Below the pieces are notes generated by a model that was not told the DNA's origin, made no database searches, and saw only the letters and a list, made by a program, of their open reading frames with translations. This document shows, piece after piece, positions 35,782 through 58,048 of a stretch of 64,000 nt of DNA. The position numbers were made by a program, and so were the translations under genes. The stretch is from an uncultured Mollicutes bacterium (GTDB taxonomy: Bacteria; Bacillota_I; Bacilli_A; RFN20; CAG-826), in the NCBI GenBank assembly GCA_900540385.1, contig UQFY01000001.1, positions 11,344 to 75,343 of the forward strand, written 5' to 3'. Every line of letters begins with the position of its first letter. The first letter of the stretch is position 1.

Positions 35782-35815
35782 TTAAAAGCGGCATTACGTT
35801 TTAGAGGAAAAATAG

Positions 35816-37018: not shown

Positions 37019-37207
37019 TTAGTTCCGGCCAATTTTCTAAAACAAAATGGTTTTCTAAGAAGCATTTGAATGGAACACTTTTTTTTAGGTTTATGGTGTG
37101 CATTCATAAAAAGATTTAAAACATCAAAAAAAGTTTGACATATTCAAAAATAAATTGATGCTAAAATATATTTGTGATAAAAATAATGAATACTAAAGAG
37201 GTTTAAT

Positions 37208-37342: not shown

Positions 37343-39041
37343 AGCTTTTAACCTGCAAAAAGAGGAGGATCTTATTCTCCCTTCTTTGCCTTGTGTCTCT
37401 TTCGAGGTAACAAAAGGCAACGAACTAGAAACCATTGACCAATATAGATTGGTTTCAGGAGAGCAAAACGAATACACGCTCCTCGTATCTTATATGAGTG
37501 ATGTACATCTTACGCATAAATTATTGGCTAATTCTTGCAAGACGATATACGATGCGGAAGAAGAAATTCGTGAACTCTCGAACGTTTTCTTTAATAAAAC
37601 GCAAACTAAGATTTCTTTGTTTGTAGGCGACCTTACTGACAAATTCGATTTATACGAGAAATTTTTGAAATGCCCAGTCTTGTTCCGCCACAAGAATAAG
37701 TTTTTCTTCACTTTAGGGAATCACGAACTTTGGGCATTCCCAAATCAAAGTTTGGAAGAAACAATAACTAAATACAGATGCCTTTTGGAAGATGAGGGGA
37801 TCAATCTTGTTCAAAACGATGTCTATTATTTTCAGTCTTCTGATCCTTTTTTCTTAAGAGATCCTATTAGGATTAGCGAACAAGAATTAAAGACTCTATC
37901 CTCTGACGATCTTCATAAAAAACTGAGGGATGCCTCTCTCATTATTTTTGGAGGCATTGGTTTTGCTGGCGCCAATCCTACGTTTAACGCTACGAGCGGC
38001 ATTTATCAAAACGTTTTGAGTAGAGAAGAAGAAATAGAGGAGACAAAAAAGTTCTGTGATTATTACAAGAAAGTCATCGATGCGACAAAGGGGATGCATC
38101 TTATTGTGTTGACCCACATGCCAGTGAAGGATTGGCTTGGCGAAGAAAAATACGAGCCCGGAGTCTTATACGTTAATGGTCACACTCACAATAACTATAG
38201 ATACGACGATGGGATAAAAAGAGTCTATTCAGATAACCAATCGGGATACATGTCTAAATCGATTTCATGGAAAGAAACTTCCACTGACTTTGGATTCGAC
38301 TGGTTCAAAGATTATAAAGATGGCATTTATCCAATAAGCCTTGCTGATTACCGAGTATATTATCGAGGAATCAATGAGAGGATGAATCTCAAGAAAGAAC
38401 CCGGGCAACTATATCTTTTAAAACGAGATGGCTTGTATATGTTTCTTTGCAAAAAGGAAAAACTGTATTTCATGCAAGGCGGGAAAAAACTTAATTTAGA
38501 GAATCAAGACGTTGAATATTATTATAAAAAGATGGAGGCGTATGCGAACTCTATCAAAGAATGCCTTTCCGAATATGAATTGGCCCAAAATCGCATAGCA
38601 AACGAAATCAAAAAGATTGGCGGTAGTGGTCTTATCCATGGTTGCATCATCGACATCGATTTCTTTAACCATATTTATCTTAATATCCTTGATGGAAAAG
38701 CAACTCCTTATTACGCTTCCTTCATAACAGCTAAAATGGCATATCAAAATGTCGCCAGTCTTCTAAGTGATAAATGTCCAACGCTATATTCCAAATATCA
38801 AGCCCTCATTGATGGGACAAAAGGCAACTCATTAACGACTTTAGGCGATAATAAGATTTCAAAAAAGACGTATTTCGTAACGGACACGAGCATGTATCGT
38901 ATCTCTAGACTGATTAAGCAACTCCAATTCATTGGAGACCATGGCTTGATAAGGCAATGGAATGATGAGGTTGCTAATAAAGCATCTAAAGAGAATGGAA
39001 CTCTTATTTTGAGAGATATGCTTATCGGAGAAGAACAATAA
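37323..39041 (+). CDS. calcineurin-like metallophosphoesterase with long C-terminal extension
   Basis: VGDLTD (GDxxD) and FTLGNHELW (GNHE) phosphoesterase motifs. Confidence 0.65.
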   Translation: MKLDGIEAFNLQKEEDLILPSLPCVSFEVTKGNELETIDQYRLVSGEQNEYTLLVSYMSDVHLTHKLLANSCKTIYDAEEEIRELSNVFFNKTQTKISLFVGDLTDKFDLYEKFLKCPVLFRHKNKFFFTLGNHELWAFPNQSLEETITKYRCLLEDEGINLVQNDVYYFQSSDPFFLRDPIRISEQELKTLSSDDLHKKLRDASLIIFGGIGFAGANPTFNATSGIYQNVLSREEEIEETKKFCDYYKKVIDATKGMHLIVLTHMPVKDWLGEEKYEPGVLYVNGHTHNNYRYDDGIKRVYSDNQSGYMSKSISWKETSTDFGFDWFKDYKDGIYPISLADYRVYYRGINERMNLKKEPGQLYLLKRDGLYMFLCKKEKLYFMQGGKKLNLENQDVEYYYKKMEAYANSIKECLSEYELAQNRIANEIKKIGGSGLIHGCIIDIDFFNHIYLNILDGKATPYYASFITAKMAYQNVASLLSDKCPTLYSKYQALIDGTKGNSLTTLGDNKISKKTYFVTDTSMYRISRLIKQLQFIGDHGLIRQWNDEVANKASKENGTLILRDMLIGEEQ

Positions 39042-39068
39042 GAATCAATGTTCTCTTTTAACAAAAAA

Positions 39069-39096
39069 GCCTTGAAGATATTCTTCTCCCCAAGGC
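39069..39096. terminator. bidirectional terminator hairpin GCCTTG...CAAGGC between metallophosphoesterase gene and repeat copy C
   Basis: acaaaaaaGCCTTGaagatattcttctccCCAAGGCaagtttcttatatttt read directly. Confidence 0.55.
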
Positions 39097-39102
39097 AAGT
39101 TT

Positions 39103-39505
39103 CTTATATTTTTGGTGCGCCTGGCAGGAATTGAACCTGTATGAGTCGCCTCATTAGATCCTAAGTCCTACATAGGGGGCTTCTTTCGTTTGGCTCGCTA
39201 AGGAACACGGAAGTGGAATCAGACGCACAGGAGGAAATTTGTTGCCAGTCCAAAGTAAGAAAAAGAATGCCAATCAATAGCGTACATTGGCTTTTGCGGA
39301 CGAGCTGCGGACGGAAGCGGACGGCCATGGCAAGCCTTATTTTAGACCTGCAGATTGATGGTGTTTCACCAGTCGGAACCGCCTTCGTTCCTGCAAGCAT
39401 TATAACAAAACAAAATGCGAATACAATAGGAAAAAACAAAGATTTCATCGAACTTTTTTCAATGCCCGGATAAGATTCTGTCGGGTTCTTTTTAAGGTAT
39501 GCGGA
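39103..39505 (-). repeat. ~400-bp GC-rich repeat, copy C; minus-strand 3' end is tRNA-like (T-arm CAGG-UUCAAUU-CCUG, acceptor CAGGCGC, A, CCA); candidate structured ncRNA
   Basis: Identical to 44296-44690 over ~350 bp, similar to ~390; reverse complement of 39103-39216 gives GCGUCUG...ACAGGUUCAAUUCCUGCCAGGCGCACCA with 7/7 pairing between ends including one G-U; internal GNRA hairpin AUGAG-GCGA-CUCAU. Confidence 0.85.
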
Positions 39506-39658
39506 CGCATCGGTTTAGCAAAAATGATGTCATTGTTTTAAATATCATCTCCCCTTTTTCAACTTAAGAATAGAAATATAAAAATCGGTTTCTTCGATGC
39601 CCCATCATAATCCTGCTATAATAATGTGAGCAATAAACATATAAGGAGCATAATCATC

Positions 39659-41566
39659 ATGGGAGATAACCAATTTGAACCCTATCCTTGGTCGCTTAAA
39701 CAGGTAGTTGAACAGAACTTCTATGAAGTCCCGATTTATCAAAGACCATACACATGGTCCACTCCGGAAGTGAATTCCCTTTTAGATGACATTTTTTCAG
39801 CTTATCGTTCTAATACGGATCAATCCCGAAATTGCCTTTTCACCGGCCAACTTTTCTTGCGCAAGATGGGTAAAGGGAGTGATGGTGTAAAAGACAAATA
39901 CGAAGTTGTTGATGGACAGCAGCGTCTTACAACTTTTTCTATGATTCTAATCGCCATTTTTTCCATTGCTAGAAAAAGAGGGTTTAAGGACGAGGATAAG
40001 GAAATTGCAGACCTTCGTTCTTTTTTATGGAAATACTCTCAAAGTCAAAGAAACTATAACAAGAATGAACGTTTAATCACTCTATCCAGTATTGACAAGG
40101 ATTTGTTCCAGTTCATTTTTGATTCCGCTTATGATAGTCCCACTGAGATTTTGAAACTTGTTGATGGTTATCCAATTGCATGTGCTACAGAGAGTAATCT
40201 TCGTCTCATGCTTCACAAAGTTTATGAAAGAATCGAAAAGGAGATCCCAATTAGAAAAGATGCTTCCGATGAAATTCTTCATTTTTTGTCGTTTTTATGC
40301 GATAAGACTCTTTTCATTGCTATCCAATCCTCAATCGATATGCCTCGTGTCTTCTCAGTTTTTGAGTCTATTAACAGCAAAGGAAAACCGTTGGATGACA
40401 TTGATAAAATCAAGACGTACATCTTCTCAATCTTGGAAGAAAAGGATTATTCCAGCTATCTCATGCGCTGGGGACAGCTCATCATCAAAACCGATGATAA
40501 ATTAGAGGAATATTTGCAGGTATACATTAAAGCTTTCCTTTTCTATTATCGCCAAAAAATCAACTTGAAGGAATTCAAAGCTATCGCTAGATGCTTACCC
40601 GGCATCTATGGTGTGTCATCTCTGGCCGAAGCATTGAAACGGCTGATTGACGAAATGCTGGCAAAAGCGGATAGCTTTGCTTTGCTCGGAAATGAAGCGA
40701 AAATAGAAAAACTTATCAACAAACCAGAATTCACGACCTTTTACAAGCTTTATTCTTTGAATGGCTATTCGCACCCTAAGTCTTTGTTCTTCCGTGCAAT
40801 GTGTGAATACTTACACACGAAGGACGACGGGACACCAGACCCACTTATTACAAAAGAAGGACTGACCAAGATTGTAAAATCGGCAACCTTGTTCATGTTC
40901 AAGTTCCAATCAATTAAGGGCGGCGATTCTAAAGATGCAATCAGATATTTTGAGAATATCGGTAAGAATTTCTATGGGAAAGTCGCTTTGGACCCAGATT
41001 GGATTTCTTCCGCTTTTGCCAACGCTCTTATAAAAGAAGGCGTAGACAAATCTACGATTCGCTCCGACTTTATCAATATGGACTTCTATTCTAAACGAGA
41101 CCTTGCTTATTGTGTTCTTTCTTTGCTTGAGTCCATTGATACAAAGAAAAATAAAGATGGAACCGTCAGTAACAAGCTGCTTTTCGCTCAAGCATCAGCA
41201 ATGCTGTCTCATATCAAAGATAAAACTTTCCAGGTAGATCATATGCTTCCTCAATCTCCCGATAAAAACGAGCCTAGATTCAAATATTATAAAGATGATA
41301 GTAAGAATCCTGCTGTTTTGGTTTTGAAGGAGGGAAATGATTTTCCAAAAGAAACTGTTATTGATGGCATGAGATATGATGAATTTGAAAGCAGAACAAT
41401 CAATCATATAGGAAACATTCAGCTATTAAACCCTCAGAAAAACGAAGAGAAAGGGAATGGAGTTTATCAACTCCCTAACCATGAAGAATTTACAACCTAT
41501 CAGCAGGTGCTTGATCGTTGTCAAAAAATGGCTGACTTGTTATTCAATACGTCGGATTTAAACTAA
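39659..41566 (+). CDS. GmrSD-family type IV (modification-dependent) restriction enzyme, DUF262 + DUF1524
   Basis: ATG 39659 after SD aaggag; DUF262 motifs YQRPYTW and VVDGQQRLTT; C-terminal His-Me finger-like QVDHMLPQS and INHIGNIQLL. Confidence 0.8.
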   Translation: MGDNQFEPYPWSLKQVVEQNFYEVPIYQRPYTWSTPEVNSLLDDIFSAYRSNTDQSRNCLFTGQLFLRKMGKGSDGVKDKYEVVDGQQRLTTFSMILIAIFSIARKRGFKDEDKEIADLRSFLWKYSQSQRNYNKNERLITLSSIDKDLFQFIFDSAYDSPTEILKLVDGYPIACATESNLRLMLHKVYERIEKEIPIRKDASDEILHFLSFLCDKTLFIAIQSSIDMPRVFSVFESINSKGKPLDDIDKIKTYIFSILEEKDYSSYLMRWGQLIIKTDDKLEEYLQVYIKAFLFYYRQKINLKEFKAIARCLPGIYGVSSLAEALKRLIDEMLAKADSFALLGNEAKIEKLINKPEFTTFYKLYSLNGYSHPKSLFFRAMCEYLHTKDDGTPDPLITKEGLTKIVKSATLFMFKFQSIKGGDSKDAIRYFENIGKNFYGKVALDPDWISSAFANALIKEGVDKSTIRSDFINMDFYSKRDLAYCVLSLLESIDTKKNKDGTVSNKLLFAQASAMLSHIKDKTFQVDHMLPQSPDKNEPRFKYYKDDSKNPAVLVLKEGNDFPKETVIDGMRYDEFESRTINHIGNIQLLNPQKNEEKGNGVYQLPNHEEFTTYQQVLDRCQKMADLLFNTSDLN

Positions 41567-42394: not shown

Positions 42395-43678
42395 TCAGAA
42401 CAATTCTACCCGGCCAAGCAGCAGGTCGATCAGATTGCAGTGGAAGATGCCGTTGTCGTCATAAAAATTGTGCTGCACATCCATGCGAACGATAATCTTT
42501 TTGAAGAAATCCTTGGTAAGCATCAGCGATGCCAGTTCGGAAAATTCCTTTTTATCGGTATCCATGCGGAAAGCGGACTGAATATAGATTTTTTTATCCG
42601 CATCGTTTACCACAAAGTCGATCTCTTTCTGAACCTTTCTGTCGCCCGTGCGGTCGCAAACCACACCGACATCAACGGAGTACCCGCGTCGCAGAAGTTC
42701 GTTATAGACCATGTTTTCCATGATATGACCGGGATCGTATTGGCGGTAATTCAGCCGTGCGTTCCGAAGCCCGATATCTGTATAGTAGTATTTGTTCGGA
42801 TATTTGAAATAGGTCTTTCCTTTGACATCATATCGCTTTGCCATTGAAATGAGAAAAGAGTCGATAACATACTGCACATAGTTTGAAACCATCGCAGGAT
42901 TGATTTTTTCGTTCTTCATGGACGCGATGGCGTTTGCGATATTGGTCGGATTCGTCAGCGAACTGATCTGCGAAGCAAGGAAGTCCAGAATATCATTTAG
43001 AACATCCTCGCGCTCGATGCCGTTTCGCTCCACAATATCCTTAACATACAATTCGTTGTAGAGGGAGGTCAGATAATCCTTCTTATCTTTGTCATCCTCC
43101 AGTGCTAAAAGTCTCGGCATACCGCCATAGAGCATATAGGTATCCAGCGCTTTTCGCTCGTCGCCGCCCACGGCAGAATAAAACTCCGCAAATGACAAAG
43201 GGAACACGTGGATCTGTGTAGCACGACCGCGAAACTCTGTTGCGATATCTTTTGACAACCCTTTGGAGTTACTGCCGGTGACATAAACATCAAGGTTTTT
43301 ATATGCCTTGAGTTCGTTCAGCATATCGTAGATGGTAACCTCGATGCCACCGTTTTCCTTGTCCACTACTTTTGTGGTGAGCTGCACCTCATCAATGAAC
43401 AGATAGAATTTTTCATCCTTCCTGCCCTGGACGGCGTTTTCTACATATTCGCACAAAGTGATCGGATTCCTGAGCTTATAGTACCGCCGCTGGTCCAGTT
43501 CGATTTTCAAAATATGATCTTCCGAAACGTTCTGCGAAAGAAGATACTCGAAAAACAGATCGAAAAGCAGTACGGACTTGCCGCATCTGCGTATGCCTGT
43601 GACGACCTTTATCTCGCCGTTCCACATACTGTGGATCAGTCTGTTCATATAGGAATCGCGTTTAACCATATATTTCAC
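42395..43678 (-). CDS. AAA+ ATPase with DUF4143 domain (COG1373 family), paralog 3, in a GC-richer patch
   Basis: VVTGIRRCGKSVLLFDLF P-loop; C-terminal EIDFVV box. Confidence 0.85.
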   Translation of the reverse strand: MKYMVKRDSYMNRLIHSMWNGEIKVVTGIRRCGKSVLLFDLFFEYLLSQNVSEDHILKIELDQRRYYKLRNPITLCEYVENAVQGRKDEKFYLFIDEVQLTTKVVDKENGGIEVTIYDMLNELKAYKNLDVYVTGSNSKGLSKDIATEFRGRATQIHVFPLSFAEFYSAVGGDERKALDTYMLYGGMPRLLALEDDKDKKDYLTSLYNELYVKDIVERNGIEREDVLNDILDFLASQISSLTNPTNIANAIASMKNEKINPAMVSNYVQYVIDSFLISMAKRYDVKGKTYFKYPNKYYYTDIGLRNARLNYRQYDPGHIMENMVYNELLRRGYSVDVGVVCDRTGDRKVQKEIDFVVNDADKKIYIQSAFRMDTDKKEFSELASLMLTKDFFKKIIVRMDVQHNFYDDNGIFHCNLIDLLLGRVELF

Positions 43679-44890: not shown

Positions 44891-46276
44891 ATGGATTTAG
44901 AAGATAAGATAGGTCGGCAAGAATTTGTGGATAAAGTTTGTGGGGTGATTGATTCACTGAAAAAGGACAACCACATCTGCCTGGCAATTAATGGGTCCTG
45001 GGGAAGCGGGAAGTCGTTCGTTTTAGGAATGATTGAAGATAAGCTTTCACAAAAGCCTGAATATATCGCCATCAAATATGATGCCTGGGAAAACTCTTTT
45101 TATTCCGATCCGCTTATATCTATCCTTTCCTGCATCATTGATGAAGTAGAGGAAAAGTTCCCTTTGCCACCTGGAAAAGAGAATATCAAGCAAGCCGTAA
45201 AGGCTGGCTTTGAAGCTATTGCCGAGGTAACGCCTAAACTACAAAATCTGAAGGCTATCATCAAAGGATTGACTGCCGTTATAAAAAGCTTTCAACATCC
45301 CATTGATACGGCAGATCTTGATGAATTCAAATCGTACAAGAAGCTTTTGAAGGAAACGAAAGAACTTCTGAATAAACTTGCGTCATCGGAAGATGGCGCA
45401 AGTCAAAGCAAACTTATCATCCTTGTCGATGAGATTGATCGTTGCTTGCCTGATGAGCAATTGAAGATATTGGAACGGCTTCACCATTTGTTTGATGTGA
45501 AGAACTGCGCGGTCATCGTTACGATGAATCAAAGCTCTGTGGCAAAAACAGTGGAAACAGTCTATGGAGTTGATGGCTATGAATATCTTCGCAAGTTCTT
45601 TGACTTCACCTTTAGACTCAGCGTGTCTGCGAAAGATTATCTTAGAAATCTACTGAATGATTGCACCAAGATTTTTGTGAAAATGGGCGTGCCCGAAGAC
45701 AAGGCCGAAATTCCCACCAAGCTGGCTTGCCAATGCTTGCTGTACGGGGATAAAAAAGTCCTGGATAAAACAGATAACAGAGAGCTTACCCGATATTACG
45801 AAGGGGTAATGAATGTTTGCAATGACTTTGGATGGGAGAGAATAAGAAATCCCTATTATGTTTTCTTTGTTTTGGTGGCTTTATACATTCGAAGAGTAAT
45901 TGATCCCTCATTTTTAGATACAGAGATGATTTTGTCTAATCAGGCTAAATTTTCAAATGATTTTAAAAGCCTCTCACGGGAAGAAAGAGAGATGAAAATG
46001 CCCTATTTTGATTACTTGAAGAAGCACATAGGATTCGATAGAGAAAACCCTCCAGAAGCATTCGAACAGCTTTATCGCTGGGGAGGAAGCGACATGGCTG
46101 AGTATTGCTGGACCTTTAATGAAACTATTTATTATTCTTTGGCAAAAGAAATTCCCAACAATGATTGGAGAAGATTTTACAGCCAACCGACTGTTAATCC
46201 GGATGATTGCAAAGTGTTGTGTAAGCTAATTGTCTTATATGGCGGGGAGCAACCGAATGTAGTTGATAAAAAGTGA
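44891..46276 (+). CDS. KAP-family P-loop NTPase
   Basis: LAINGSWGSGKSFVLG Walker A and LIILVDEIDRCLPDE Walker B. Confidence 0.8.
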   Translation: MDLEDKIGRQEFVDKVCGVIDSLKKDNHICLAINGSWGSGKSFVLGMIEDKLSQKPEYIAIKYDAWENSFYSDPLISILSCIIDEVEEKFPLPPGKENIKQAVKAGFEAIAEVTPKLQNLKAIIKGLTAVIKSFQHPIDTADLDEFKSYKKLLKETKELLNKLASSEDGASQSKLIILVDEIDRCLPDEQLKILERLHHLFDVKNCAVIVTMNQSSVAKTVETVYGVDGYEYLRKFFDFTFRLSVSAKDYLRNLLNDCTKIFVKMGVPEDKAEIPTKLACQCLLYGDKKVLDKTDNRELTRYYEGVMNVCNDFGWERIRNPYYVFFVLVALYIRRVIDPSFLDTEMILSNQAKFSNDFKSLSREEREMKMPYFDYLKKHIGFDRENPPEAFEQLYRWGGSDMAEYCWTFNETIYYSLAKEIPNNDWRRFYSQPTVNPDDCKVLCKLIVLYGGEQPNVVDKK

Positions 46277-46618: not shown

Positions 46619-46891
46619 TTATTCAACACTCTCTTTGCATTTTTGAATGCATTGATCATATTTTTCTTTATTAAGTTTAAGAGAAGATATTTCTTCTTCG
46701 ATGGCCTCTCTCACTGCCTGTGCAAAAAAATCAGTATCAAAGTTTTCAGCAGGACATTCACATGTAATCTGAGAAACATCAATCTTTTCGGTATCTGTAA
46801 CAAATTTCACTAATTCTGAAAGTGAAGGTGTGTTAGTTTTTAGCTTTGCTATTTGTTGGCCTTTATAAAGAATTATGATTTCATTCGCCAT
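46619..46891 (-). CDS. hypothetical 90-aa protein, last gene of the 7-gene operon, overlapping PHP-ATPase gene end
   Basis: Overlaps upstream gene by 11 nt; no recognisable motif. Confidence 0.5.
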   Translation of the reverse strand: MANEIIILYKGQQIAKLKTNTPSLSELVKFVTDTEKIDVSQITCECPAENFDTDFFAQAVREAIEEEISSLKLNKEKYDQCIQKCKESVE

Positions 46892-49232
46892 ATTTTAATA
46901 ATCTCCGTTCTATTGCACGTTTTCCGCCATCTAGAATTTTAGATATCTTATCAAGAATGTCCTTGTATTCTAGAGCGCCATATTCGTAATTAAATTCATC
47001 ATCAGCTATTTGACTACTCAAAACAACGTTTTCGGAATCGGAATTTACTACAATGTTTGCATCATGCGTTACCACAATAACTTGTCTTTTCTTTTTGAGT
47101 TCCGAGAACCAGGTTGTCAGTTGAGTATAAATTGTTTCGTTGTCTATGTTATCTTCTGGCTGATCAATAATGATAGGGTCGTTGCTTTCTTTGAAAACAA
47201 TATATTCAAGCAAAAGATTTGCTCTAGTTCCTGGAGAGACTGTTTTTAAATCTTTCTTATTGCCAAACTCATCTTGGAATATTATTTCGTTGGTCAATTC
47301 GATTTTGTAGCTCTTAAGATGGTTTAATTCATCATCTAATTCATAGTCTTTTTTTGATTCCAGAAGAACTTCGGAACAATGGTAGCAATATACCTGAATT
47401 AGTTTGAATAGGTCTGCTTTGTCTTTTCTATTTATGTAGAACGATTTCAGCTTATTTAAATCAAAATAGCTGTTAAAAACATCAAATAAGTAATCGTTTA
47501 GGTTCTGAAAATGCAGGCTTCTTTGAAAGTAAAATTTTCTAGAATTGTAACCATTACTTTCTTTTTTAGAGCATTTATTGAAATTAAAATCAAAGATGGC
47601 CAAGTAATTATTCATCAAATGAACTCTAAAATTTATTTTATCGAATTGAGATGCAAAAGATTGTTTAAAAGTTTTAATAGCATCGTCTTTCTTTTTCTTT
47701 TCTTTATTTTGCGCATTGACTTTTGCTTGATACTTATCCGGAATTAAATATCTAAGGTTTTCTAAAATAGCCTTCTTGTTAAAAGTGAAAGTAGAAGAAT
47801 AAATTGCCTGAATATACTTTATTGCTGCTTCTTTAATTTCGGGACAATCGGCCAATTCTTTCGGGACAATTTCATTATTTGTGAGTTTTGAAAACAAGTC
47901 CTGAAAATTGCTATAAGCGACTTGATTATCTTCTTTGCCTTTGGCCCACAAAGAAATTACTTTGCAATCTTGCAGATGGACTACCTTTTTATCTAAAGAT
48001 GTAATGTTCGAATTTGTGGGAGAAGTCTGTTCAAAGCAAGTGATCTTATTTAGTAAATTATTCTTTTCTTGTTCGATACTATAAGTTTCCAAAGAAGAAA
48101 ACTCATCTTTGAAATAAACCGTGGAAACCAAATCACATTTTTTACGGAATAACTCTTGTGCGTATCCCTGATTATAATAGTCAAAATGAAAATCGTGCCC
48201 TTTTAGCGGTTCGCCATTTAAGTCGGAAACACAGTATTGAAGCTTTTCCAAGTAATCAATTCGATCTGGCTGAGATTCTGTGAAAATACTATTGGACAAG
48301 GCTGGGTTTAAATAGAAAGCAGCTCCATCAATTAAGAGACTTTTTCCCGATCCTCTACCGCCAACAACAGAATTTAGACCGGGACTAAATAAAATCCTGT
48401 TATTTCCTTGAGTTATTTCTCCAATGCATTTTCCTTTCATGTCACTTGTCAGCGTTTTTCTTTTTTTGGCAATTCGGTGGCAATCAGTTCCGACTAGTCT
48501 CAAACCATTAAATGTAGGGAGGGAATTGAAATACTGCTTTGGATTGTTGAGGTAGTTTTCTAATTTTTCGAAATTGTTGGAGTCAGAAAATGATATTACT
48601 GAAACTCTGTCTCCTCTGTCGAAATCTTTTAATAGCTCAATTGCTCTTTGAACGTTGGTGTTATTTGACGCCTCCCAAAAGCAGCACATTTGATCTATGT
48701 ATTTATCTATGTTTTGCTTTGTCGACTCTTCATCCCAATTGAATTCAATTCCACGTTTGTCTTGCTTTATGAAATGTGGGCTAATCAAAAATGGAACTTT
48801 TATCTTTGTTATTAAGAAATTTAAGAAGTTGGCAAGCGTTGGAATGTGATTATTCTTAAGAAAGGAGTTTATTTTTTCGGCTTGTGTGTTTAAATCAAAC
48901 TTTTCATCGTCAAAGTAAAATATGATGTGTTTGTAATTGTCTCCGCTCTCGCCCTCTTCTAAATATAAATCTGCTTCTAACCCGATTAGCAGTTTAACGC
49001 TAGTGTTTTTTGATAGGAATTTCTTATAAACCTCCGTGCTAATTTGGTTGTGATCCGTAAAACTGATCATCTCCAAATCTGAATGCTTTGAAAACAATGT
49101 GATTAATCGACTGATGTATGCATCCACGGACATTTTTGAAAATTCATTAGACCCTTTCGGGCATAACGGGGTGTGTATATGAAGATCCCAAACAGAACCT
49201 TCATAGGCTATTGCTCTGTTAATATCTTGCAT
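46881..49232 (-). CDS. PHP-domain phosphoesterase fused to ABC-type (AAA_21/SbcC-like) ATPase
   Basis: N-terminal PHP motifs WDLHIHTP, SFTDHN, GLEAD, SPHF; P-loop VVGGRGSGKSLL; C-terminal Walker B IIIDQPEDNID and H-loop VVTHD. Confidence 0.75.
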   Translation of the reverse strand: MQDINRAIAYEGSVWDLHIHTPLCPKGSNEFSKMSVDAYISRLITLFSKHSDLEMISFTDHNQISTEVYKKFLSKNTSVKLLIGLEADLYLEEGESGDNYKHIIFYFDDEKFDLNTQAEKINSFLKNNHIPTLANFLNFLITKIKVPFLISPHFIKQDKRGIEFNWDEESTKQNIDKYIDQMCCFWEASNNTNVQRAIELLKDFDRGDRVSVISFSDSNNFEKLENYLNNPKQYFNSLPTFNGLRLVGTDCHRIAKKRKTLTSDMKGKCIGEITQGNNRILFSPGLNSVVGGRGSGKSLLIDGAAFYLNPALSNSIFTESQPDRIDYLEKLQYCVSDLNGEPLKGHDFHFDYYNQGYAQELFRKKCDLVSTVYFKDEFSSLETYSIEQEKNNLLNKITCFEQTSPTNSNITSLDKKVVHLQDCKVISLWAKGKEDNQVAYSNFQDLFSKLTNNEIVPKELADCPEIKEAAIKYIQAIYSSTFTFNKKAILENLRYLIPDKYQAKVNAQNKEKKKKDDAIKTFKQSFASQFDKINFRVHLMNNYLAIFDFNFNKCSKKESNGYNSRKFYFQRSLHFQNLNDYLFDVFNSYFDLNKLKSFYINRKDKADLFKLIQVYCYHCSEVLLESKKDYELDDELNHLKSYKIELTNEIIFQDEFGNKKDLKTVSPGTRANLLLEYIVFKESNDPIIIDQPEDNIDNETIYTQLTTWFSELKKKRQVIVVTHDANIVVNSDSENVVLSSQIADDEFNYEYGALEYKDILDKISKILDGGKRAIERRLLKYGE

Positions 49233-49255: not shown

Positions 49256-52117
49256 TTACTCCTTGAACTTCAGGAAACCTTTTGTAAACCCATCTGGATT
49301 AACAAACTTTTTCTCGCCGACAGCAAAACGGACGGTAAGGTATTTGTCTTTCTTATCTATATTTATGATCTCACCATCACCGAATTTGGCATGGACCACT
49401 TTTGCACCGACTACAATCTTAGAAAAGTCTATGTTCATCGCTTCTGTATAGTCGTTTACTTGTTTCAAGATAGGCTTGATAGTGGTCTTAACTTTATTAT
49501 CTACGGGTTCTGATTTATCCGCGTTAGAAGGTTCGGGCGGAATCGGAAATTCTGAGTTCTTCATGGTTGCCTGCTGGTTATAGAAGAGTTTTTCGTATTC
49601 CTCTCTTCTGATGACGGTATCCCAACCACCGATATCCTCGCTCGTGTGTTTTTCAATGCCGGTGTAGGAAAGAGAGGAATCCTCATATCTCTTGAATTTG
49701 AAGATGGCGTCGTTCATTAAGGACGAGTTGAAAACGCCAAGAGAGCAAAGGAGTTCGAAATCTTTGACATCCAGGCCTGTGACCTTCTTGAAAAGACCAG
49801 GCTCAAGCTGTGTGATGACATCTTTGAGACATCTCTCTCTGTAATCAGTGAGATACATGAAAACAGGAATTCTGGTCGCAAACTTGATGAGCTTCTCCTG
49901 GATTTCCTTTCTCTTTGATTTGTATTCCTTCTCCTCTTCGGTGAGTTCCTTCTTTTCTTTTGGAGTGAGCTTTTCGTCCCCTTCTTGCTTTGCCTTCTTG
50001 ACATGCTCGGACTTGTTGATGATGGTCTCGATATCCGAGTTCAAGGATCGGAATCCTTCAATGCTCATCAGAGCATCCAATGCGTCTTTGTTGTTCAAAA
50101 GCTTATTGAGAGTATCGTTATCGACATTGACCAAAAGAGCGGATTCCCATCTTCTCGCAAGCAATGTCGCGGAAGTGCCGGCCATAGCGATATCCAAGAC
50201 ATCCTGAGCGTTAATCTGCTTCATGGTGGAGCCATCGTAAGCGAGCACAGGAAGGAAATTGATGAATTCAGCAACTTTTTTCTCTGGATCAGAACCATCC
50301 GGATTGAGACGACAGGAATAGTCCGAAATCTGTCTCAAGGCACGGTCCAAGGCAAAATCAAAGACGTAGCATTCCTCTTTGAGGATTGTCTCGGTTCCAT
50401 TCGAATTCTTAATCGTCCATGGGGACTGGACTCTGAAAGCCGCCTGGAAATAGGTTTCTGGCGATTTCAGATTTCTCAGCATAAAGATGCCAGTCCATGG
50501 ACGGATGGTGACACCTGTTGTTAATTTTCCGCAGGTTAAAGTGATTGTCTTTTTTTCTAAGGCAGGATCCATTGACCGTTTTACTGGGTCTACAGCGGCC
50601 AGGCCAATGCCTGCCTTTGTTCCTGCACAGAGATTGATGGTGTAGTCATGATAGAAAGTGTTTTGTCTTTCTCTGAGAAGGTTGTACATGGCTTCGCAGG
50701 AAGCGACGTTAGGCAAAAACCACAAAGTGTGAGAAAGGACATTCAGAAGACGGGTATCAGAAAACGGCATCGGAGGACGCTTATCCTGACCTAATTTTAA
50801 ATCATCAATGCTGGCGGTGAGATATTGTCCTCTGATCAAATCAAGCCATTTCTGAACTTCGTTCTTGTATTTGAAGGTGGCGTTTGCTCCTTTTCCTTCT
50901 GCGGAGAAGAAGACGTTGAGATCGAATTCGTTGAATTCGCCGTCCATGGCCACCTGTTTGATGCTGTCAGGCATCTGATAGGTCATCAAAACCATTCTCG
51001 GCAAAGAAAGATATGGGTTATTGGAACCTTTCCAATTCTCTTTGGCTCTTTGCTCATCGGAATAGGTCCAGTTGTAGATTTGGTCTTCGATGAATTCTCC
51101 GCTGCTGATGGCTCTGAACGGTGTTCCGGAAAGGAAGAGATAGTAATTTGTCGTGATAGGAAGGAAGGTTTCGTTGTACGCATTGCCGGCTTCATCGTTT
51201 TGGTATTTCTCGACATCGAAATCGGCGTCCGCTTCCTCATCCGGGTTCTCGAAAAGCTTCTTTGCGTTTTCACGCCAGGCACCGAAATGATATTCGTCGA
51301 AGATGACCATATCCCAGTTTTCTGTATGGATGAATTCGTTCTTGGCTTTGATTCCGCCATTGTCGTTCGTTCCGAGAAGGTTCTGGAAGGAACCGAAAAC
51401 GACAATAGGTTTGGATTTGTCACAGGCTTCAAATTCTTTGTCCAAGCGGGTGCTCGAATCTTTGGCATCGTTATCGGAAACGAACTGCCATCCTTCGAAA
51501 TCAATATGTGTGAGCAGATCCTCTTTCCAAGCAGATTCGACTGCTGGTTTGAAAGTCAGGATAAGGATTCTCTTTAAACCCATGCTCTTTGCCAGCTCAT
51601 AGGAAGCAAAAGTCTTTCCAAAACGCATCTTGCAGTTCCATAGGAACTTCGGTGCCTTATTCGGCTCTTCCTCTTTGGCTTTCTTGAAGTATTCTTCCGT
51701 GTATTGGACGGCTCTAACCTGTTCAGGTCTCATCTTGAATGTTGCCGTTCTTCCGCGGGTAGTGATGATGCCGGCACTGACTTCCTCGATGGCCTTCTCT
51801 ACATCTTCTTTAGTGCATTTGAACCATTCGTTCTTGTCTTCTCCGTTATAGAGCTGTTTGAATCCTTCTCTCTTTAAAATCGCATGGATATCATGATCCA
51901 TGAAGCACGTTCCATCGGAACGCACAGCAGATCTAACTAATTCGGTCTTATGTTTCAAACCACTGGTATGAAGCTGTTCGTTGATTCTGTCTTCGTAGTC
52001 CCCACGATCGGTGTATCCTATTTTCAGATATCCCTTATGAGAAGGAACATCGGGTAAGCTATAGGCATATATGGTCGGCTTGACCTCAGGTCTTTGCTTG
52101 AAAAATTCCGTTGCCAT
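49256..52117 (-). CDS. T5orf172 (GIY-YIG-superfamily, MUG113-like) domain fused to SF2 DEAD/DEAH-type helicase with C-terminal small beta-rich domain
   Basis: N-terminal TIYAYSLPDVPSHKGYLKIGYTDRGDYEDRINEQL fits the T5orf172 pattern; Walker A MRFGKTF and DEAH-like VIFDEYHF; 4-nt ATGA overlap with upstream MTase gene. Confidence 0.7.
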   Translation of the reverse strand: MATEFFKQRPEVKPTIYAYSLPDVPSHKGYLKIGYTDRGDYEDRINEQLHTSGLKHKTELVRSAVRSDGTCFMDHDIHAILKREGFKQLYNGEDKNEWFKCTKEDVEKAIEEVSAGIITTRGRTATFKMRPEQVRAVQYTEEYFKKAKEEEPNKAPKFLWNCKMRFGKTFASYELAKSMGLKRILILTFKPAVESAWKEDLLTHIDFEGWQFVSDNDAKDSSTRLDKEFEACDKSKPIVVFGSFQNLLGTNDNGGIKAKNEFIHTENWDMVIFDEYHFGAWRENAKKLFENPDEEADADFDVEKYQNDEAGNAYNETFLPITTNYYLFLSGTPFRAISSGEFIEDQIYNWTYSDEQRAKENWKGSNNPYLSLPRMVLMTYQMPDSIKQVAMDGEFNEFDLNVFFSAEGKGANATFKYKNEVQKWLDLIRGQYLTASIDDLKLGQDKRPPMPFSDTRLLNVLSHTLWFLPNVASCEAMYNLLRERQNTFYHDYTINLCAGTKAGIGLAAVDPVKRSMDPALEKKTITLTCGKLTTGVTIRPWTGIFMLRNLKSPETYFQAAFRVQSPWTIKNSNGTETILKEECYVFDFALDRALRQISDYSCRLNPDGSDPEKKVAEFINFLPVLAYDGSTMKQINAQDVLDIAMAGTSATLLARRWESALLVNVDNDTLNKLLNNKDALDALMSIEGFRSLNSDIETIINKSEHVKKAKQEGDEKLTPKEKKELTEEEKEYKSKRKEIQEKLIKFATRIPVFMYLTDYRERCLKDVITQLEPGLFKKVTGLDVKDFELLCSLGVFNSSLMNDAIFKFKRYEDSSLSYTGIEKHTSEDIGGWDTVIRREEYEKLFYNQQATMKNSEFPIPPEPSNADKSEPVDNKVKTTIKPILKQVNDYTEAMNIDFSKIVVGAKVVHAKFGDGEIINIDKKDKYLTVRFAVGEKKFVNPDGFTKGFLKFKE

Positions 52118-52120
52118 CGC

Positions 52121-53674
52121 TTAGTCCTCCATCGATTCGACGTTGTTTTCGATGAAATCTATTTCTTTTTGATTAAGACCGTATTTCTCATAGAGTTCTT
52201 TGTCGGTCCACGGCTTAGAAAAGTCTTGGAGAGGGACGTATTGATAAACTCCGGAAGCTGCTCCTTGGTCATTTTTCTTCACACCAACAAGTGCACGGAA
52301 AAATTTAGTTTTTATGTAAGACCAGCAATTCATCATTTCTTTTTCTGTTTTGAATCCACCAATAACAACGAAAGTTTCTGTACATAGTTCTCCTGGTTTA
52401 GCAAAAACAGGTTCAGAGAATTTTTCTCCAAATAAACCTGCCCCTTGGTTTCGTGCCATAAACATTTTGTAGTCGTTAATGAAATCTTTCTTTGGAATAG
52501 GATAATTAGATGGAATGTATCGTATTGCTCTTTTTGCACCATCTAATCCATAAATAGAATAGCCATTTTTAAATGGAGTTTCACTTACTGCAGGAAGCCC
52601 ATATTTTGAGGGGTTTTTGAACATGTCGCCACGAAAACCAAACGGTTTTTGTGGCGACACATGTAAGGAAAACGATTCTTCATTAAATTTCTTTACTTTT
52701 CTATAAATCGAAACCAGTTCATTATTTCTAATGAAAATATCACATCCATCTTCTAACATTGTTCTATCAGTTTCGGTCGCGACTTGGTTTCCGTTGTCGT
52801 TGATGATATGTACGACAGGGCTTGTCTTATCTCTATCCCAAAGGAAGTAATTAACACCACCTTTGATCTCAACACCTGTAAAACACAGGGATGCGTCTTT
52901 GAAATCGTGGATGATGGACATTCTGTTGTCATGGAGCATTTCGTTTCTAAAATCGTCAAGGCCCTTGCCGCCTGTCATCCAACGGGAAGGTACAATCATG
53001 GAGAGATATCTTGGCTTGAGCTTGATGGCTTGCTGAATGAACTTTTGATAAATGGGGCTGGCACTAGCTTGGGCACCTCCGTCATTGAGCTGATAAGGTG
53101 GGTTACTGATAATGACATCGAACTTCATCTTGAATACCTCCTCCACGTTCATTCCATGAATGAACTCATATGCATGTGTTTCTAAATCTTCTCTTTTTGT
53201 TCCACCCAATTCCTGTTCGCTTGCTCCGCAGTAAACACATCTTCCGTTTTTGAACGTGTGGCTGCAGTTCTTGAATCGGATGTTTCCGTCCGCATTTTCG
53301 AAATGTGTGATAGAGAACTCGCCGTTTGCGTATTTAGAACAATAGACACCGCGTCTTGAAAGAAGACTGGTCAGTTCCGTGATTGCGATTCCATAAAGCT
53401 GTTTATGGAAGATATGGTCGACTCTATCCTGAAGATCAGGGATTTGGTTTTCTAGTCCTTTGAGGAGTCTTTTTGCGATTTCTCTCAGAAAAACGCCAGT
53501 CTTGCAGGCAGGATCAAGGAATGTCGTATCCGGATTCTCGAACAGCTCTTGAGGGAGCATGTCTAACATCTGGTTGACGACATCCGGGGAAGTGAAGACT
53601 TCATCGTTGGAGAGATTGGCCAAACAGCTCAATACGTCAGGGTTATAAACCTTGCTGAATAAATCATCACTCAT
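52121..53674 (-). CDS. N6-adenine DNA methyltransferase (gamma-type motif order, Eco57I/TaqI-like) with Cys-cluster insertion
   Basis: Motif I TFLDPACKTGVFL, motif IV VIISNPPYQ; CSHTFKNGRCVYCG between them. Confidence 0.85.
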   Translation of the reverse strand: MSDDLFSKVYNPDVLSCLANLSNDEVFTSPDVVNQMLDMLPQELFENPDTTFLDPACKTGVFLREIAKRLLKGLENQIPDLQDRVDHIFHKQLYGIAITELTSLLSRRGVYCSKYANGEFSITHFENADGNIRFKNCSHTFKNGRCVYCGASEQELGGTKREDLETHAYEFIHGMNVEEVFKMKFDVIISNPPYQLNDGGAQASASPIYQKFIQQAIKLKPRYLSMIVPSRWMTGGKGLDDFRNEMLHDNRMSIIHDFKDASLCFTGVEIKGGVNYFLWDRDKTSPVVHIINDNGNQVATETDRTMLEDGCDIFIRNNELVSIYRKVKKFNEESFSLHVSPQKPFGFRGDMFKNPSKYGLPAVSETPFKNGYSIYGLDGAKRAIRYIPSNYPIPKKDFINDYKMFMARNQGAGLFGEKFSEPVFAKPGELCTETFVVIGGFKTEKEMMNCWSYIKTKFFRALVGVKKNDQGAASGVYQYVPLQDFSKPWTDKELYEKYGLNQKEIDFIENNVESMED

Positions 53675-54359
53675 AATCTTTTAACCTCTTGTAGTTCATT
53701 ACGCTCCGATGGACGAATTTGCCTTCTCCGTTGTTATTGTCGAAGAGGGTTTCCTGTCCATTTGTGTCTTGCTTAGGATTTTCGTTTTGCTTAAGAATCT
53801 CATCGAATGTGTATTCGCTTCGGGATAGCTGAGGCCCGGTTACGAATCCCCATTCGCTGAAGAGAATCGGATCTTCCTTGTCGTTTCCATTTTCATCGAC
53901 TTCATGGAGCGTCAAAGCATTCCCGCAGACGATATTCTTGGAAAGGATGAAACGGATGGAATCCCGCATATCCTCGCTGCATTCCTTTTTGCAGACGGCT
54001 TTATATTGCTTGTCCCAGATTTTGAAAAGACGCTCACGGCACGCAATCACATTGTCCATCATAATGTCCACACCATAAAGGCTAGATACCGCAAGCAAAG
54101 AGTTCTTTTCAAAATCCATGACACTTCTTCTGTATTTTTTCTTCACAACAGCCAGTTTTCTGTCGAGAATCTCTGCTAAGAAGTTTCCGTCTCCACAGGC
54201 AGGCTCCAGGAATCTGGAATCGATTCTCTGTGTTTCGTCGTTCACAAGATCACACATTGCTTTGACTTCACGCTCATTGGTGAAGACCTCGCCGTGGTCG
54301 ACGACACGCTTTCTGGATTTGATCTGCTTGTTTGCTTTCTGTTTCGTTTCTTTTGGCAT
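53667..54359 (-). CDS. methyltransferase-like N-terminal paralog (motif I present, no NPPY)
   Basis: EVFTNEREVKAMCDLV...FLEPACGDGNFL parallels the N-terminus of the downstream N6A-MTase but the 230-aa ORF lacks a (N/D)PP(Y/F) motif; overlaps MTase start by 8 nt. Confidence 0.55.
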   Translation of the reverse strand: MPKETKQKANKQIKSRKRVVDHGEVFTNEREVKAMCDLVNDETQRIDSRFLEPACGDGNFLAEILDRKLAVVKKKYRRSVMDFEKNSLLAVSSLYGVDIMMDNVIACRERLFKIWDKQYKAVCKKECSEDMRDSIRFILSKNIVCGNALTLHEVDENGNDKEDPILFSEWGFVTGPQLSRSEYTFDEILKQNENPKQDTNGQETLFDNNNGEGKFVHRSVMNYKRLKDYE

Positions 54360-54574
54360 TACTCGTCTACCTCGATCTTGTGTTTCTTGAAGTAGGGAGC
54401 AAGCTTTCTCTTTGCTTTGATGGTCGGCTGATGGGCGCCTCTTTCCCAGCGGTTCACAGTCTGAAAGGAAACACCCAAAAGATTCGCAAGTTCCGTCTGG
54501 GATAAAATCAGAGTAGTTCTCAGCTTCTTAACAGCTTCAGCATAGGTCATATGTTTGCTCCTGTTCTTGGTCAA
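54359..54574 (-). CDS. XRE-family HTH regulator (controller/C-protein-like)
   Basis: LSQTELANLLGVSFQTVNRWERG HTH_3 signature; stop overlaps downstream MTase-like gene start. Confidence 0.75.
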   Translation of the reverse strand: MTKNRSKHMTYAEAVKKLRTTLILSQTELANLLGVSFQTVNRWERGAHQPTIKAKRKLAPYFKKHKIEVDE

Positions 54575-54635: not shown

Positions 54636-56503
54636 TTAGTTCTTGACCAACTGTTTAAGATATTCGCGAAGATTGTCATCTTCTGCATAGATGAACGTTC
54701 CTTTTACACCTCTGGTCAGAAGAACCTTATAGGTGTTTCGAATCAGTTTCTCTGCCAAAGCGCCATCTGCAGTTCTGATTCCACTTGCGGAATCACTATG
54801 GGCATTCATTTCTTTGTGGAATTCAAGCTTGCCTGTTTTCTTGTTGTAGGTAAGGTCTTTTCCAATGATGACGCCTGCATATTCGACTTCCAGTCCCTGG
54901 ATGGTATGGATACAGAACACATTCTCTTTCTGAGTTTCATCCAAAATCGCGGCTCTATCCGCCTTCTTGATATTCCAGCGAAGCTTGGTTCCGTCTTGGT
55001 ATTCGAAATCATATTTATCCAGATCATATTGGCTGACCCATTCATGGGTGTAACCGGCCATGAGTCTCATCTGATGGTTGGAATCCCAGAGTTCACTCCA
55101 TTTCTTCATCATGTCCTTCATGGAATCCATGATTTCTACTTTGTATTTCATTCCTTTTAAGGAGACATAGTCATTCGTGTAACCCAAGAAATGATTCACA
55201 AAGGAGATGTACTGTTCTCCTCCGACGCAACGGAACTGGGAAGAGAGAATCATTCGATCATCTTCAATCACCTTCGAACCATATTTTTCAGCGTATTCCT
55301 TTATCTGTTTGATGGACAAGTCATCGGAAGTGGTGACAACCTGGTCTTCGTCAACCAAGAACACATTGACTCTTGATGCATTGAATAATTTATCGATGAC
55401 ATCGACGCTTCTCTGCACGCCCCATCCGAACTTCCATTTCAGCATTCGATGAGCTTCATCGACGATGATGCAGTCGAAGTCATAGGCAGCCGATTTTGCA
55501 AAGGCGGCAGGGGTTTTGAACAACTCCTTGATGGCTTTCTTGGTGAAATCTTTGGTGAGGATATCGCCAAAATAGGTACGAGGCGTGAAATTTGCAGTCA
55601 CATAGCAGGCATTTCTTCTTTCTGAACCATCCTTCGGATGCATAAGCTGACCTAGGGCATTGATAGCCACGATGGATTTTCCAGATCCCGGTCCACCTCT
55701 TACGATGATAGTTCTTCTTTCCCCTTTTTCTAAAGCTTCCTGAACTTCACTTACTATCTTTGAAACAGAATAGGACTGCTCGGCGTCATAAGAAAAGAAT
55801 GGTTCACCGTTGATGGCATCGGCAACCATCTTGGAGAAGCCTTCGCTTGGTCGGATTTGAGAACTATCGATTTCATAGAGCGTGTTGTGACTATAAGGTT
55901 TCTTTATATATTTTGCGATGAACTCGCTGAGTTTCTTCTGATCATCTTTTAAGAATGCAGGTGCCTCATGGACGAGAGGGTATTCCTTTTCGTTTTTCAA
56001 AAGGACTTCATATCCCTCTGGCATGTTGTGGAGATAAGAGCAGGCATTCACACCGACCTTGTTGGTGTAGATGTACTCGTTGAAGTCTTTCATGATGTTG
56101 GCGTAGTTCAACGCCTGATAGGAAGGATGCCAGTAATCATCCATTCCATGCCCACCATCTGTTACGACATAGTCTTTTAGTGATGATCTTCTTACTGTAC
56201 TCCATTGTTTGAGCTCAATGAGGATGACATTTTCCTTGTCTTCTTCGTCTTTTCCAAAAATCAGGAAGTCCACTCTTTGTTTCGTGTCTACGAGTTTGTA
56301 TTCGACACCGACGCCTGCCTCTTTGGGAATGGAATTATCCTTCAAGGCTTCGGCGACCTTTGGAAGGGAGTGAATCCAGGAGTTGTACTCGCTTGGAGAA
56401 CCGCCGCCGATATGGTTCGCTTTGAATTCGTTTAAAAGCATTCGGCCGATAATCGGATTTGATCCGCTGCAACTGCTTATGAAATTTCCTACAGTATCGC
56501 TAT
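54636..56503 (-). CDS. DUF2075-like SF1 P-loop NTPase/helicase with N-terminal PD-(D/E)xK-like nuclease motif
   Basis: Start set to ATG at 56503 after SD GGAGGG (track uses a longer alternative start to 56564); VDFLIFG...ILIELKQW (D...ExK), Walker A RGGPGSGKS, Walker B CIIVDEAHR. Confidence 0.7.
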
Positions 56504-56919
56504 ATAAAATCATCAGAAACCCCTCCCATGTCCTTGCTATTAGTTTATAACAAAGATATGTCACTTTGGAAATTTTATGGAAAAAATTGACGAAAAGGCT
56601 TATGGTCGAAACTCATCATTTCTTTAAAAACGTAAAGTAATAAGCGAAACCGGGATTGCATCTCTTGATTTTGACAAAGAAAAAGGCAAATAAACGAAGA
56701 ATATAGGCGCTTTCAGCTAATGGCATGTTTAAATATTAGGGAGCCTAGGGAAGTTCTAGGTTGTTGTCCTGGCAACGTGATTAGCAACTCACGACCCGAT
56801 CAACGCATCAACGGCCTGGTTGCTGGGCTGTCTGCCTGATTAGGAGAGCAGCTTCTGATAGACAGGCAACGACGACCTACTCTTTTCACTTGTCTGTTCT
56901 CCTGAAAGGAGGACAGCCG

Positions 56920-57583: not shown

Positions 57584-58048
57584 ATGTGCGAAAGCAATGT
57601 CTTGAACACGAAGCAGATCACAAGATGCACCCTGCGTTTCTATGATCCTAGCTTCGTGGAAAAACTAAATTCCCTCTACAAGAAGGTAGGAGGTACTCAG
57701 TCCTCCTTCCTAGGAATGCTCATCAAGGAAGGATACAAGGTGATGTCTCCTCTCTATGAGAGCAATGAGGAACCTGTGTCTGAATCCGTATTGGGGGTTC
57801 TAGGGGACAAGCTCGAGAGTTCACTTTCCGAACTTAAGGAGATCCTTCTCGAGAAATCGGATGCCGAGATGAAAGGAATCTCGTCTTTGTCAGATGACCA
57901 CGTCGAGCTGCTCCGCTTCCTCTCTTGCATCTACAACCTCTTCGTCTTGATCTCCATCAACGACAAGGAAGTGAAGGACATCGCCGAGGAAGGAGGACTC
58001 GACAGAATCCCGAAGAGATTCCAGAAGGCAAACAACGCCAAGAGATGA
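57584..58048 (+). CDS. MobC-like relaxosome accessory protein (ribbon-helix-helix)
   Basis: ATG 57584 after SD aaaggagg; ITRCTLRFYDPSFVEKLNSLYKKVGGTQSSFLGMLIKEG fits the MobC RHH pattern. Confidence 0.55.
   Translation: MCESNVLNTKQITRCTLRFYDPSFVEKLNSLYKKVGGTQSSFLGMLIKEGYKVMSPLYESNEEPVSESVLGVLGDKLESSLSELKEILLEKSDAEMKGISSLSDDHVELLRFLSCIYNLFVLISINDKEVKDIAEEGGLDRIPKRFQKANNAKR

Follow-up and report, generated by a model that had tools for sequence, protein, structure and literature searches.

A 64,000-nucleotide (nt) stretch of DNA from an uncultured Mollicutes bacterium (contig UQFY01000001.1, positions 11,344 to 75,343; referred to here as the window) carries on its minus strand a gene for a PHP phosphoesterase domain fused to an ABC ATPase (49232..46881), followed by an overlapping gene for a small acidic protein (46891..46619). 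Architecture and sequence comparisons place the large protein, with high confidence, in the Ppl/TrlF/Spaf_1101 superfamily, in a branch that is strictly paired with the small acidic partner gene, which is a new element. The two genes are probably a defence-island cassette, encoding an anti-invader nuclease that would work like Ppl; by analogy with this relative, a probability of roughly 0.6 is given to that reading. The cassette is made up as follows.

46881..49232, minus strand: PHP-ABC ATPase gene, Ppl/TrlF-like, of an unnamed clade; ATG start, 783 amino acids (aa) plus stop; >120 full-length homologues
48468..49196, minus strand: PHP phosphoesterase domain, residues ~13-255; H18, H20, D60, H61, E86, H102, H153, D217
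48144..48425, minus strand: N-terminal lobe of the ABC ATPase head, residues ~270-363; Walker A GGRGSGKS (291-298, K297), Q-loop Q355
47313..48143, minus strand: helical insert between the head lobes, residues ~364-640, ~280 aa; short coiled-coil-like arm
46884..47312, minus strand: C-terminal lobe of the ABC ATPase head, residues ~641-783; signature, Walker B, H-loop
46619..46891, minus strand: small partner gene, 90 aa, acidic, isoelectric point 4.7

The large gene, which has a Shine-Dalgarno sequence (AGGAG) 8 nt 5' of its start, encodes a protein with two intact catalytic centres under strong conservation. A fusion of PHP and ABC ATPase domains had been proposed at exactly these coordinates in an earlier, sequence-only reading of the window, and residue conservation, alignment of the N-terminal domain and the structural model all agree with it. 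The N-terminal half is a PHP barrel with metal-ligand motifs. The Pfam PHP profile (PF02811) matches residues 16-107 with E=5.9e-4 and 20.6 bits, below its gathering score of 26.4 and over profile positions 1-79 of 164 only, so the PHP call rests on conservation, the N-terminal alignment and the model matches. In a family alignment of 42 full-length homologues with 35-74% identity, the ligands H18 and H20 (the HxH motif), D60 and H61 (DH), E86, H153 and D217 (the Asp of D-x-H) are present in 42/42, and H102 in 40/42. When the N-terminal domain is aligned with bona fide Ppl and TrlF proteins, every PHP motif falls in register (DLHIHT/DFHNHT, SFTDHN/VISDHN, GLEAD/GVELT, KHII/VHIL, SPHF/LAHI and FSDSN/GSDAH), with D217 on the Asp of the canonical Ppl 'SDAHH'. 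The motifs thus withstood profile alignment, the comparison by which the sequence-only reading had proposed that they be judged. Its claim that all four are recognisable is borne out, with one departure, the absence of the final His of motif IV. An AlphaFold2 model of the large protein, built on the family alignment (mean predicted local distance difference test score (pLDDT) 85.4, predicted template modelling score 0.68), matches, in Foldseek at E ~1e-4, PHP domains from RNase AM (9etk, 7ug9) and from Pol III alpha (3e0d, 2hpi); a look at such a model had likewise been proposed as a check, and these matches support the PHP assignment.

The C-terminal half is an ABC ATPase head of the SMC/Rad50/RecN/AriA type, its two lobes separated by a helical insert, a resemblance far past chance, and the full ABC ATPase (P-loop, Walker B, H-loop) recognised from the letters is borne out. 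The C-terminal lobe carries the signature SPGT (666-669), the Walker B motif with the catalytic Glu, IIIDQPED (687-694; D690, E693), the H-loop H723 and a conserved 'ILDGG..A.ERR..KYG' at its end; K297, Q355, S666-P-G668, D690/E693 and H723 are all 42/42 in the family alignment. Pfam SMC_N matches the P-loop region (residues 278-313), and a profile search of PDB returns AriA, Rad50 and SMC at residues 274-309. The top Foldseek matches are the heads of SMC, RecN, condensin, AriA, Rad50 and JetC (E 6e-8 to 1e-4). Within the insert, the model shows a long helix (464-528) followed by a second one (531-545), and Foldseek aligns the protein to SMC and Rad50 heads that carry coiled coil.

Among the named families TrlF scores best (NCBIfam TrlF family AAA-like ATPase, NF045780; E=3e-64, 218.1 bits against a curated cutoff of 350), the best stretch covering residues 388-782 on model positions 564-944. 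The NCBIfam Spaf_1101 family AAA-like ATPase (NF045781; E=1e-29, 103.2 bits, cutoff 475) matches the C-terminal 110 aa only, and NCBIfam anti-phage protein Ppl (NF042955; E=3e-27, 95 bits, cutoff 1000) aligns to residues 588-777 only, on model positions 697-878. The PADLOC Ppl model matches residues 633-777 only, in the C-terminal lobe (1.6e-22), and PADLOC PDC-M49A matches residues 16-302 (4e-10; 36.9 and 20.7 bits), alongside a PADLOC mad3 match. Since the scores lie below all curated cutoffs, the protein falls outside Ppl, TrlF and Spaf_1101 as these families are defined. PDC-M49 was considered as the identity of the cassette and rejected, PDC-M49A being an Enterococcus plasmid family, a true member of which reaches 650 bits. 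The superfamily relationship is nevertheless clear from searches with the family profile, which recovers real plasmid-derived TrlF and Ppl proteins with E-values of 1e-28 to 1e-38; over the C-terminal lobe, hhalign matches E. coli Ppl with a probability of 98.6%, and this lobe aligns to TrlF and Ppl with 29-41% identity. A sequence search of PDB found no solved Ppl-like structure.

The PHP-ABC ATPase fusion is therefore not new in itself, but an already established, large and named class. A PHP partner in cis had been called unusual in the sequence-only reading, which proved mistaken: the same fusion is found in Ppl, TrlF, Spaf_1101 and PDC-M49A, and an exhaustive hidden Markov model search of 1.84 billion representatives finds 7,244 relatives, each representing a cluster, at E<=1e-3, a number that falls to 1,122 at E<=1e-30. 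TrlF and Ppl are frequent on enterobacterial plasmids (1,166 plasmid records matched), and a tblastn search of phage genomes gave C-terminal-lobe matches only, in 7 records, and no member of the window protein's clade.

Ppl (NF042955, PADLOC PDLC02208; E. coli L016:1778-4450, 891 aa) likewise consists of an N-terminal PHP domain followed by an ABC/SMC-like ATPase; its PHP motifs, Walker A and C-terminal lobe align with those of the window protein, and it too occurs in mobile DNA and defence contexts. It differs in that the C-terminal lobe has only ~29% identity, the middle insert is ~110 aa longer and the canonical D-x-H is kept (SDAHH, where the window protein has SDSN). TrlF has the same layout and the C-terminal block 'DQPEDN.D ... 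THDAN/THNAN ... GG..A..R..KYG'; in some of its members, too, motif IV has lost its final His, and some lie beside or inside restriction-modification (R-M) operons. TrlF proteins are 873-992 aa long, compared to 783 aa for the window protein, which is 90-200 aa shorter than Ppl and TrlF, the difference lying in the middle insert, to which those two families add ~100-200 aa. The Spaf_1101 proteins and PDC-M49A, the latter an Enterococcus plasmid 'histidinol-phosphatase' (L015), are related PHP-ATPases, the match to which is far below family level; the Enterococcus PDC-M49A protein has 558 aa, and its downstream gene begins ~350 nt away, with no overlap.

The clade to which the window protein belongs comprises proteins of ~770-823 aa in ~30 clusters at 50% identity, which score >~590 bits and are followed by a gap to ~250 bits. 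More than 120 full-length relatives are present in a 90%-clustered database, nearly all unnamed; as the clade falls below the Ppl, TrlF and Spaf_1101 cutoffs, its proteins are annotated only as 'hypothetical protein'. The hosts are gut and rumen Bacilli, Erysipelotrichales and Lachnospiraceae, together with Coriobacteriia (Collinsella, Atopobiaceae, Eggerthellales), Mycoplasmatota and one archaeal metagenome-assembled genome. Proteins identical to that of the window occur in human gut metagenomes, and the nearest named relative is from Candidatus Enterosoma. This patchy, cross-phylum distribution is typical for mobile defence genes.

The distinctive feature of the locus, overlooked in the sequence-only reading, is the partner open reading frame (ORF) at 46619..46891 on the minus strand. 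It overlaps the 3' end of the PHP-ATPase gene by 11 nt (ATGGCGAATGA) and has a GGAG 12 nt upstream, which suggests translational coupling. The partner gene is found in 7/7 diverse metagenomic contexts, in which every other neighbour varies. In a set of 75 reference-genome loci, with a partner defined as a small ORF starting -80..+10 nt from the PHP-ATPase stop codon, it is present in 30/30 usable loci of the close family, against a random-position rate of 0.084; this count includes L034, where the mechanical ORF call had extended the partner upstream (29/30 before inspection). The partners are homologous, with the shared motifs (S/T)(N/D)TP(D/S)..L and FD(K/T)xxF, the FD..F of the second being invariant, and form a family of 74 clusters of 62-105 aa, with neither Pfam domain nor name. 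A model of the partner (pLDDT 83.7) consists of a beta-hairpin, a helix, a strand and a 37-residue C-terminal helix, for which there was no fold match in PDB (best E=1.4) and no match in BFVD (best E=0.12). Searches of Pfam, NCBIfam and PADLOC at permissive E-values gave no credible match either, the best E-values being 0.016 for CdiA_helical and, for one member, 0.0059 for PDC-M04B. The idea that the partner corresponds to a segment embedded in the longer Ppl and TrlF proteins was examined and dropped, as it gave no signal and the clade has no members of fused length.

The E. coli ppl locus is a single gene with no overlapping small partner, unlike the window clade, and four TrlF loci (S. aureus, P. 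amygdali, Shinella, K. pneumoniae) are likewise stand-alone genes. In the curated TrlF loci examined, trlF either stands alone or has a TrlG-like AlbA_2 protein gene for a partner; a small acidic gene downstream is absent from all of them. Conversely, a TrlG partner (AlbA_2 + HATPase_c_4) is not adjacent to the PHP-ATPase gene in the window or in the seven family contexts, where the sole AlbA_2 gene, in L001, lies 9 kb off on the opposite strand. Beyond the clade, distant sub-threshold TrlF-like proteins (766-890 aa; Bacteroides, Clostridia, Nitrospirae, Patescibacteria), ten of which score 184-324 bits to TrlF and so are also below its cutoff, are followed directly at the stop codon by a short, mostly acidic ORF in 25/29 loci, against a random rate of 0.065. 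These ORFs (in the loci L058-L092; for example L085:8289-8564, L077:6458-6700 and L066:8552-8842) encode 70-142 aa, start a few nt from the stop and fall into several sequence groups. Homology to the clade partner was undetected by hmmsearch (E>=0.024), and the agreement between the two is in position, size and acidity only.

The genomic context is that of defence genes. The region of ~27-57 kb is a defence island, with genes for AbiH, a superfamily 1 (SF1) helicase, a calcineurin-like phosphoesterase, GmrSD, two AAA_14/DUF4143 proteins, a KAP NTPase and a Schlafen-type helicase. At the other family loci, in the seven metagenomic contexts, the neighbours are Dnd, DndB, retron-type reverse transcriptase/phosphoribosyltransferase, AIPR, Mrr, Fic, integrases and transposases.

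For Ppl, a defence system of one gene with an ATPase domain and a PHP domain, there is experimental support (PMC11482910). Its PHP domain is described as a 3'-5' single-stranded DNA exonuclease; according to the same account, the PHP and NTPase domains are inhibited by nucleoside triphosphates, and the protein responds to 3'-OH ends produced by phage homing endonucleases (2026 review, PMC12904381). The sequence-only prediction of a metal-dependent nuclease or phosphoesterase effector is in keeping with this relative. By analogy with Ppl, the ATPase head of the window protein would dimerise and act as a nucleotide-gated sensor of DNA or DNA ends, which would license the PHP domain for exonucleolytic degradation of invading phage or plasmid nucleic acid. 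The ~90-aa acidic protein would most likely serve as a stoichiometric regulatory subunit, which could be a lock, an antitoxin-like inhibitor or an adaptor on the ATPase head or arm, though any specific role can be assigned to it only tentatively.

A similar division of labour is seen in other ABC/SMC-like defence ATPases. PARIS AriA-AriB, Gabija GajA, OLD, Lamassu LmuB, Wadjet JetC and Rad50-Mre11/SbcCD likewise have a head fold split by a helical insert, and the general logic of an ATPase sensor and a nuclease effector is common to them and the window protein. The nuclease is what differs, being a PHP domain fused at the N-terminus rather than the TOPRIM, HNH, Mre11 or Cap4 of the other ABC-ATPase systems. 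No TOPRIM match was found by Pfam, NCBIfam or PADLOC in the window protein or its neighbours, which sets it apart from OLD, Gabija and PARIS, and the sequence likeness to these ATPases is confined to the P-loop and Walker B regions, that to AriA and GajA being at P-loop level only. Several ABC/SMC-like defence ATPases need a small bridging or kleisin-like subunit. One possibility, somewhat on the doubtful side, is that the acidic protein is an obligate subunit of the PHP-ATPase (a mini-kleisin-like lock, or an antitoxin-like inhibitor removed by phage infection), making the cassette a distinct two-component defence system, and that the small ORFs beside distant relatives are fast-evolving versions of it. 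Most of the 'short' PHP-ATPases would then be two-component machines, unlike the single-gene Ppl.

Several observations weigh against a Ppl-like anti-invader nuclease. The window protein scores under the curated cutoffs of all the named families, and good alignment to Ppl and TrlF is limited to its C-terminal 120-250 aa, so that transfer of the Ppl mechanism is an analogy. In PHP motif IV another residue, usually Asn, stands in place of the last His: the motif reads 'SDSN' in the window protein, and position 219 across the 42 homologues is N in 26, K in 6, S in 5 and H in 2. This His presumably belongs to the third metal site, as in E. coli YcdX, and its loss would alter that site; some TrlF proteins and the Enterococcus family show the same loss, independently. 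In addition, TrlF, whose name comes from the Photorhabdus 'temperature restriction locus' (TRL) trlR-trlF-trlG, in which trlF is annotated as a histidinol phosphatase, belongs to an operon tied to temperature-dependent growth arrest, with phage defence not shown and no suppressor mutations in trlF (bioRxiv 10.1101/2020.06.02.129163).

The cassette could alternatively be a toxin-antitoxin-like or growth-arrest module, in which a conditionally toxic PHP-ATPase is restrained by the small acidic protein and which stabilises mobile DNA or arrests growth under stress. This is unlikely, although the tight, translationally coupled pairing with a small acidic partner and the position of the locus on or beside mobile elements would suit it. 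The partner gene follows that of the putative toxin, while the usual order in classical type II toxin-antitoxin systems has the antitoxin gene first. The TRL operon, which includes TrlF, arrests growth at 36 °C, but the phenotype was mapped to trlG, not trlF, and the small protein of that operon, TrlR, is the product of the first gene and transcription-factor-like, rather than a downstream acidic protein (bioRxiv 10.1101/2020.06.02.129163). A module of this kind also has a great deal in common with abortive-infection defence, and no clean line divides it from the favoured anti-invader reading.

Directly upstream of the cassette, separated from the PHP-ATPase start by a gap of 23 nt, lies an R-M-like array arranged as a C-protein-style operon:

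49256..54574, minus strand: R-M-like array, co-directional with and upstream of the cassette, a lineage-specific neighbour
49256..52117, minus strand: gene of the array for T5orf172 (GIY-YIG-like) plus superfamily 2 helicase, 953 aa
52121..53674, minus strand: gene of the array for an Eco57I-type methyltransferase, 517 aa
53667..54359, minus strand: methyltransferase-like gene of the array, 230 aa
54359..54574, minus strand: HTH_3 controller-like gene of the array, 71 aa
54604..54576, minus strand: promoter-like site upstream of the helix-turn-helix (HTH) gene, the only good promoter-like site

The helicase protein matches the N-terminal part, and the 517-aa methyltransferase the C-terminal part, of a single fused PADLOC Type IIG model (PDLC03626, 1359 aa), so that the two look like a split version of it with the gene order swapped. 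Both the 230-aa protein and the 517-aa protein match MmeI_Mtase in its N-terminal part and so look like paralogues rather than gene halves. The PHP-ATPase and its partner might be an accessory subunit of this system, within a six-gene restriction operon, as TrlF is in some Type I R-M operons. The six genes all run in one direction and either overlap or lie <=23 nt apart, the sole good promoter-like site precedes the HTH gene, no minus-strand terminator-like site lies between the R-M genes and the cassette, and L001, a relative with 74% identity, repeats the arrangement; TrlF, furthermore, lies between hsdR and hsdS/hsdM on an E. coli IncC plasmid. Such a role is nonetheless decidedly unlikely. 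The arrangement recurs only in L001 and is thus confined to one shallow lineage, the six other lineages examined (35-57% identity) having no adjoining R-M genes and upstream gaps of 240-570 nt, which points to a lineage-specific docking of two defence modules rather than to one system; the R-M module was accordingly rejected as a conserved part of the cassette. Even in L001 (L001:1018-3528) the Eco57I-type methyltransferase is truncated (357 aa) by a DDE_Tnp_1 transposase, whereas the PHP-ATPase and partner are intact, and 4/5 of the curated TrlF loci examined are stand-alone.

The gene order on the IncC plasmid (L017, NZ_CP099755.1) is hsdR, trlF, a gene for an 'RNA-binding domain' protein, hsdS, an AAA ATPase gene and hsdM. 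The 'RNA-binding domain' protein appears to be a TrlG-like candidate, and the order, which echoes the Photorhabdus trlF-trlG pairing, suggests that TrlF/TrlG can act as an R-M add-on.

A housekeeping role in DNA repair, with SbcCD/Mre11-Rad50- or RecN-like end processing by a PHP nuclease in place of the calcineurin-like nuclease Mre11/SbcD, is very improbable: the fold does resemble Rad50, RecN and SMC heads, and PolX and Pol III have PHP domains that act as exonucleases in proofreading or end processing, but the distribution is patchy and cross-phylum, the flanks are variable, every location is a defence island or mobile element, the arm is far shorter than that of Rad50/SbcC, and the closest named relatives are defence-associated.

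Further features of the island and of the other loci are as follows. The plus-strand stretch 30370..41566 encodes an ASCH-domain protein (619 aa), the SF1 helicase (920 aa), AbiH (400 aa), the calcineurin-like phosphoesterase (572 aa) and GmrSD (646 aa). The AAA_14/DUF4143 genes (27463..28713 and 42395..43678, both minus strand) match PADLOC PDC-S01, with E=1e-112 for the second. The same family is found near the cassette in L001 (L001:12138-13508) and, in L005 (L005:8761-10011), directly upstream of the PHP-ATPase gene, overlapping its start by 11 nt; this recurrence could reflect chance within defence islands or a loose association. The KAP-family NTPase gene (44891..46276, plus strand; PADLOC PDC-S20, E=8e-52) is convergent with the cassette, and in the metagenomic variants L095 and L096 it is split into ORFs of 309 and 146 aa, apparently as a pseudogene. 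An RNase III-like gene lies directly upstream of the cassette in the 53% and 47% identity lineages (L003:187-717, minus strand; L012:6628-7668, plus strand), and one of the two proteins (346 aa) also has Dicer_dimer and dsRBD domains.

On the far side of the R-M-like array, 54636..56564 (minus strand) encodes a 642-aa protein with a strong Schlafen group 3 (DUF2075) helicase domain (E=1e-69). The N-terminal 260 aa of this protein give only faint hints of NERD and PD-(D/E)XK, and the protein has weak PADLOC matches to PDC-S41, AbiO and Nhi. From ~56000 to 64000 the GC content rises from ~0.35-0.40 to 0.45-0.53, and this GC-richer segment contains a MobL relaxase gene (57925..59229) and a type IV (T4) coupling protein gene (59226..61445), which indicates that the island abuts an integrative mobilisable or conjugative element. 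Scans found no tRNA or Rfam match anywhere in the window.

As the fusion is an established class, the useful part of the finding is more limited: gut bacteria of several phyla share a sizeable clade of PHP-ATPases with strict coupling to a small protein that has no detectable relatives in the libraries searched. If the small protein gates the nuclease, it would offer a handle on how SMC-like sensors stay inactive and are triggered, a question that has been addressed only recently for Ppl. It would also improve the annotation of defence genes, since this clade, and perhaps many sub-threshold TrlF-like proteins as well, could be given a two-gene rule.

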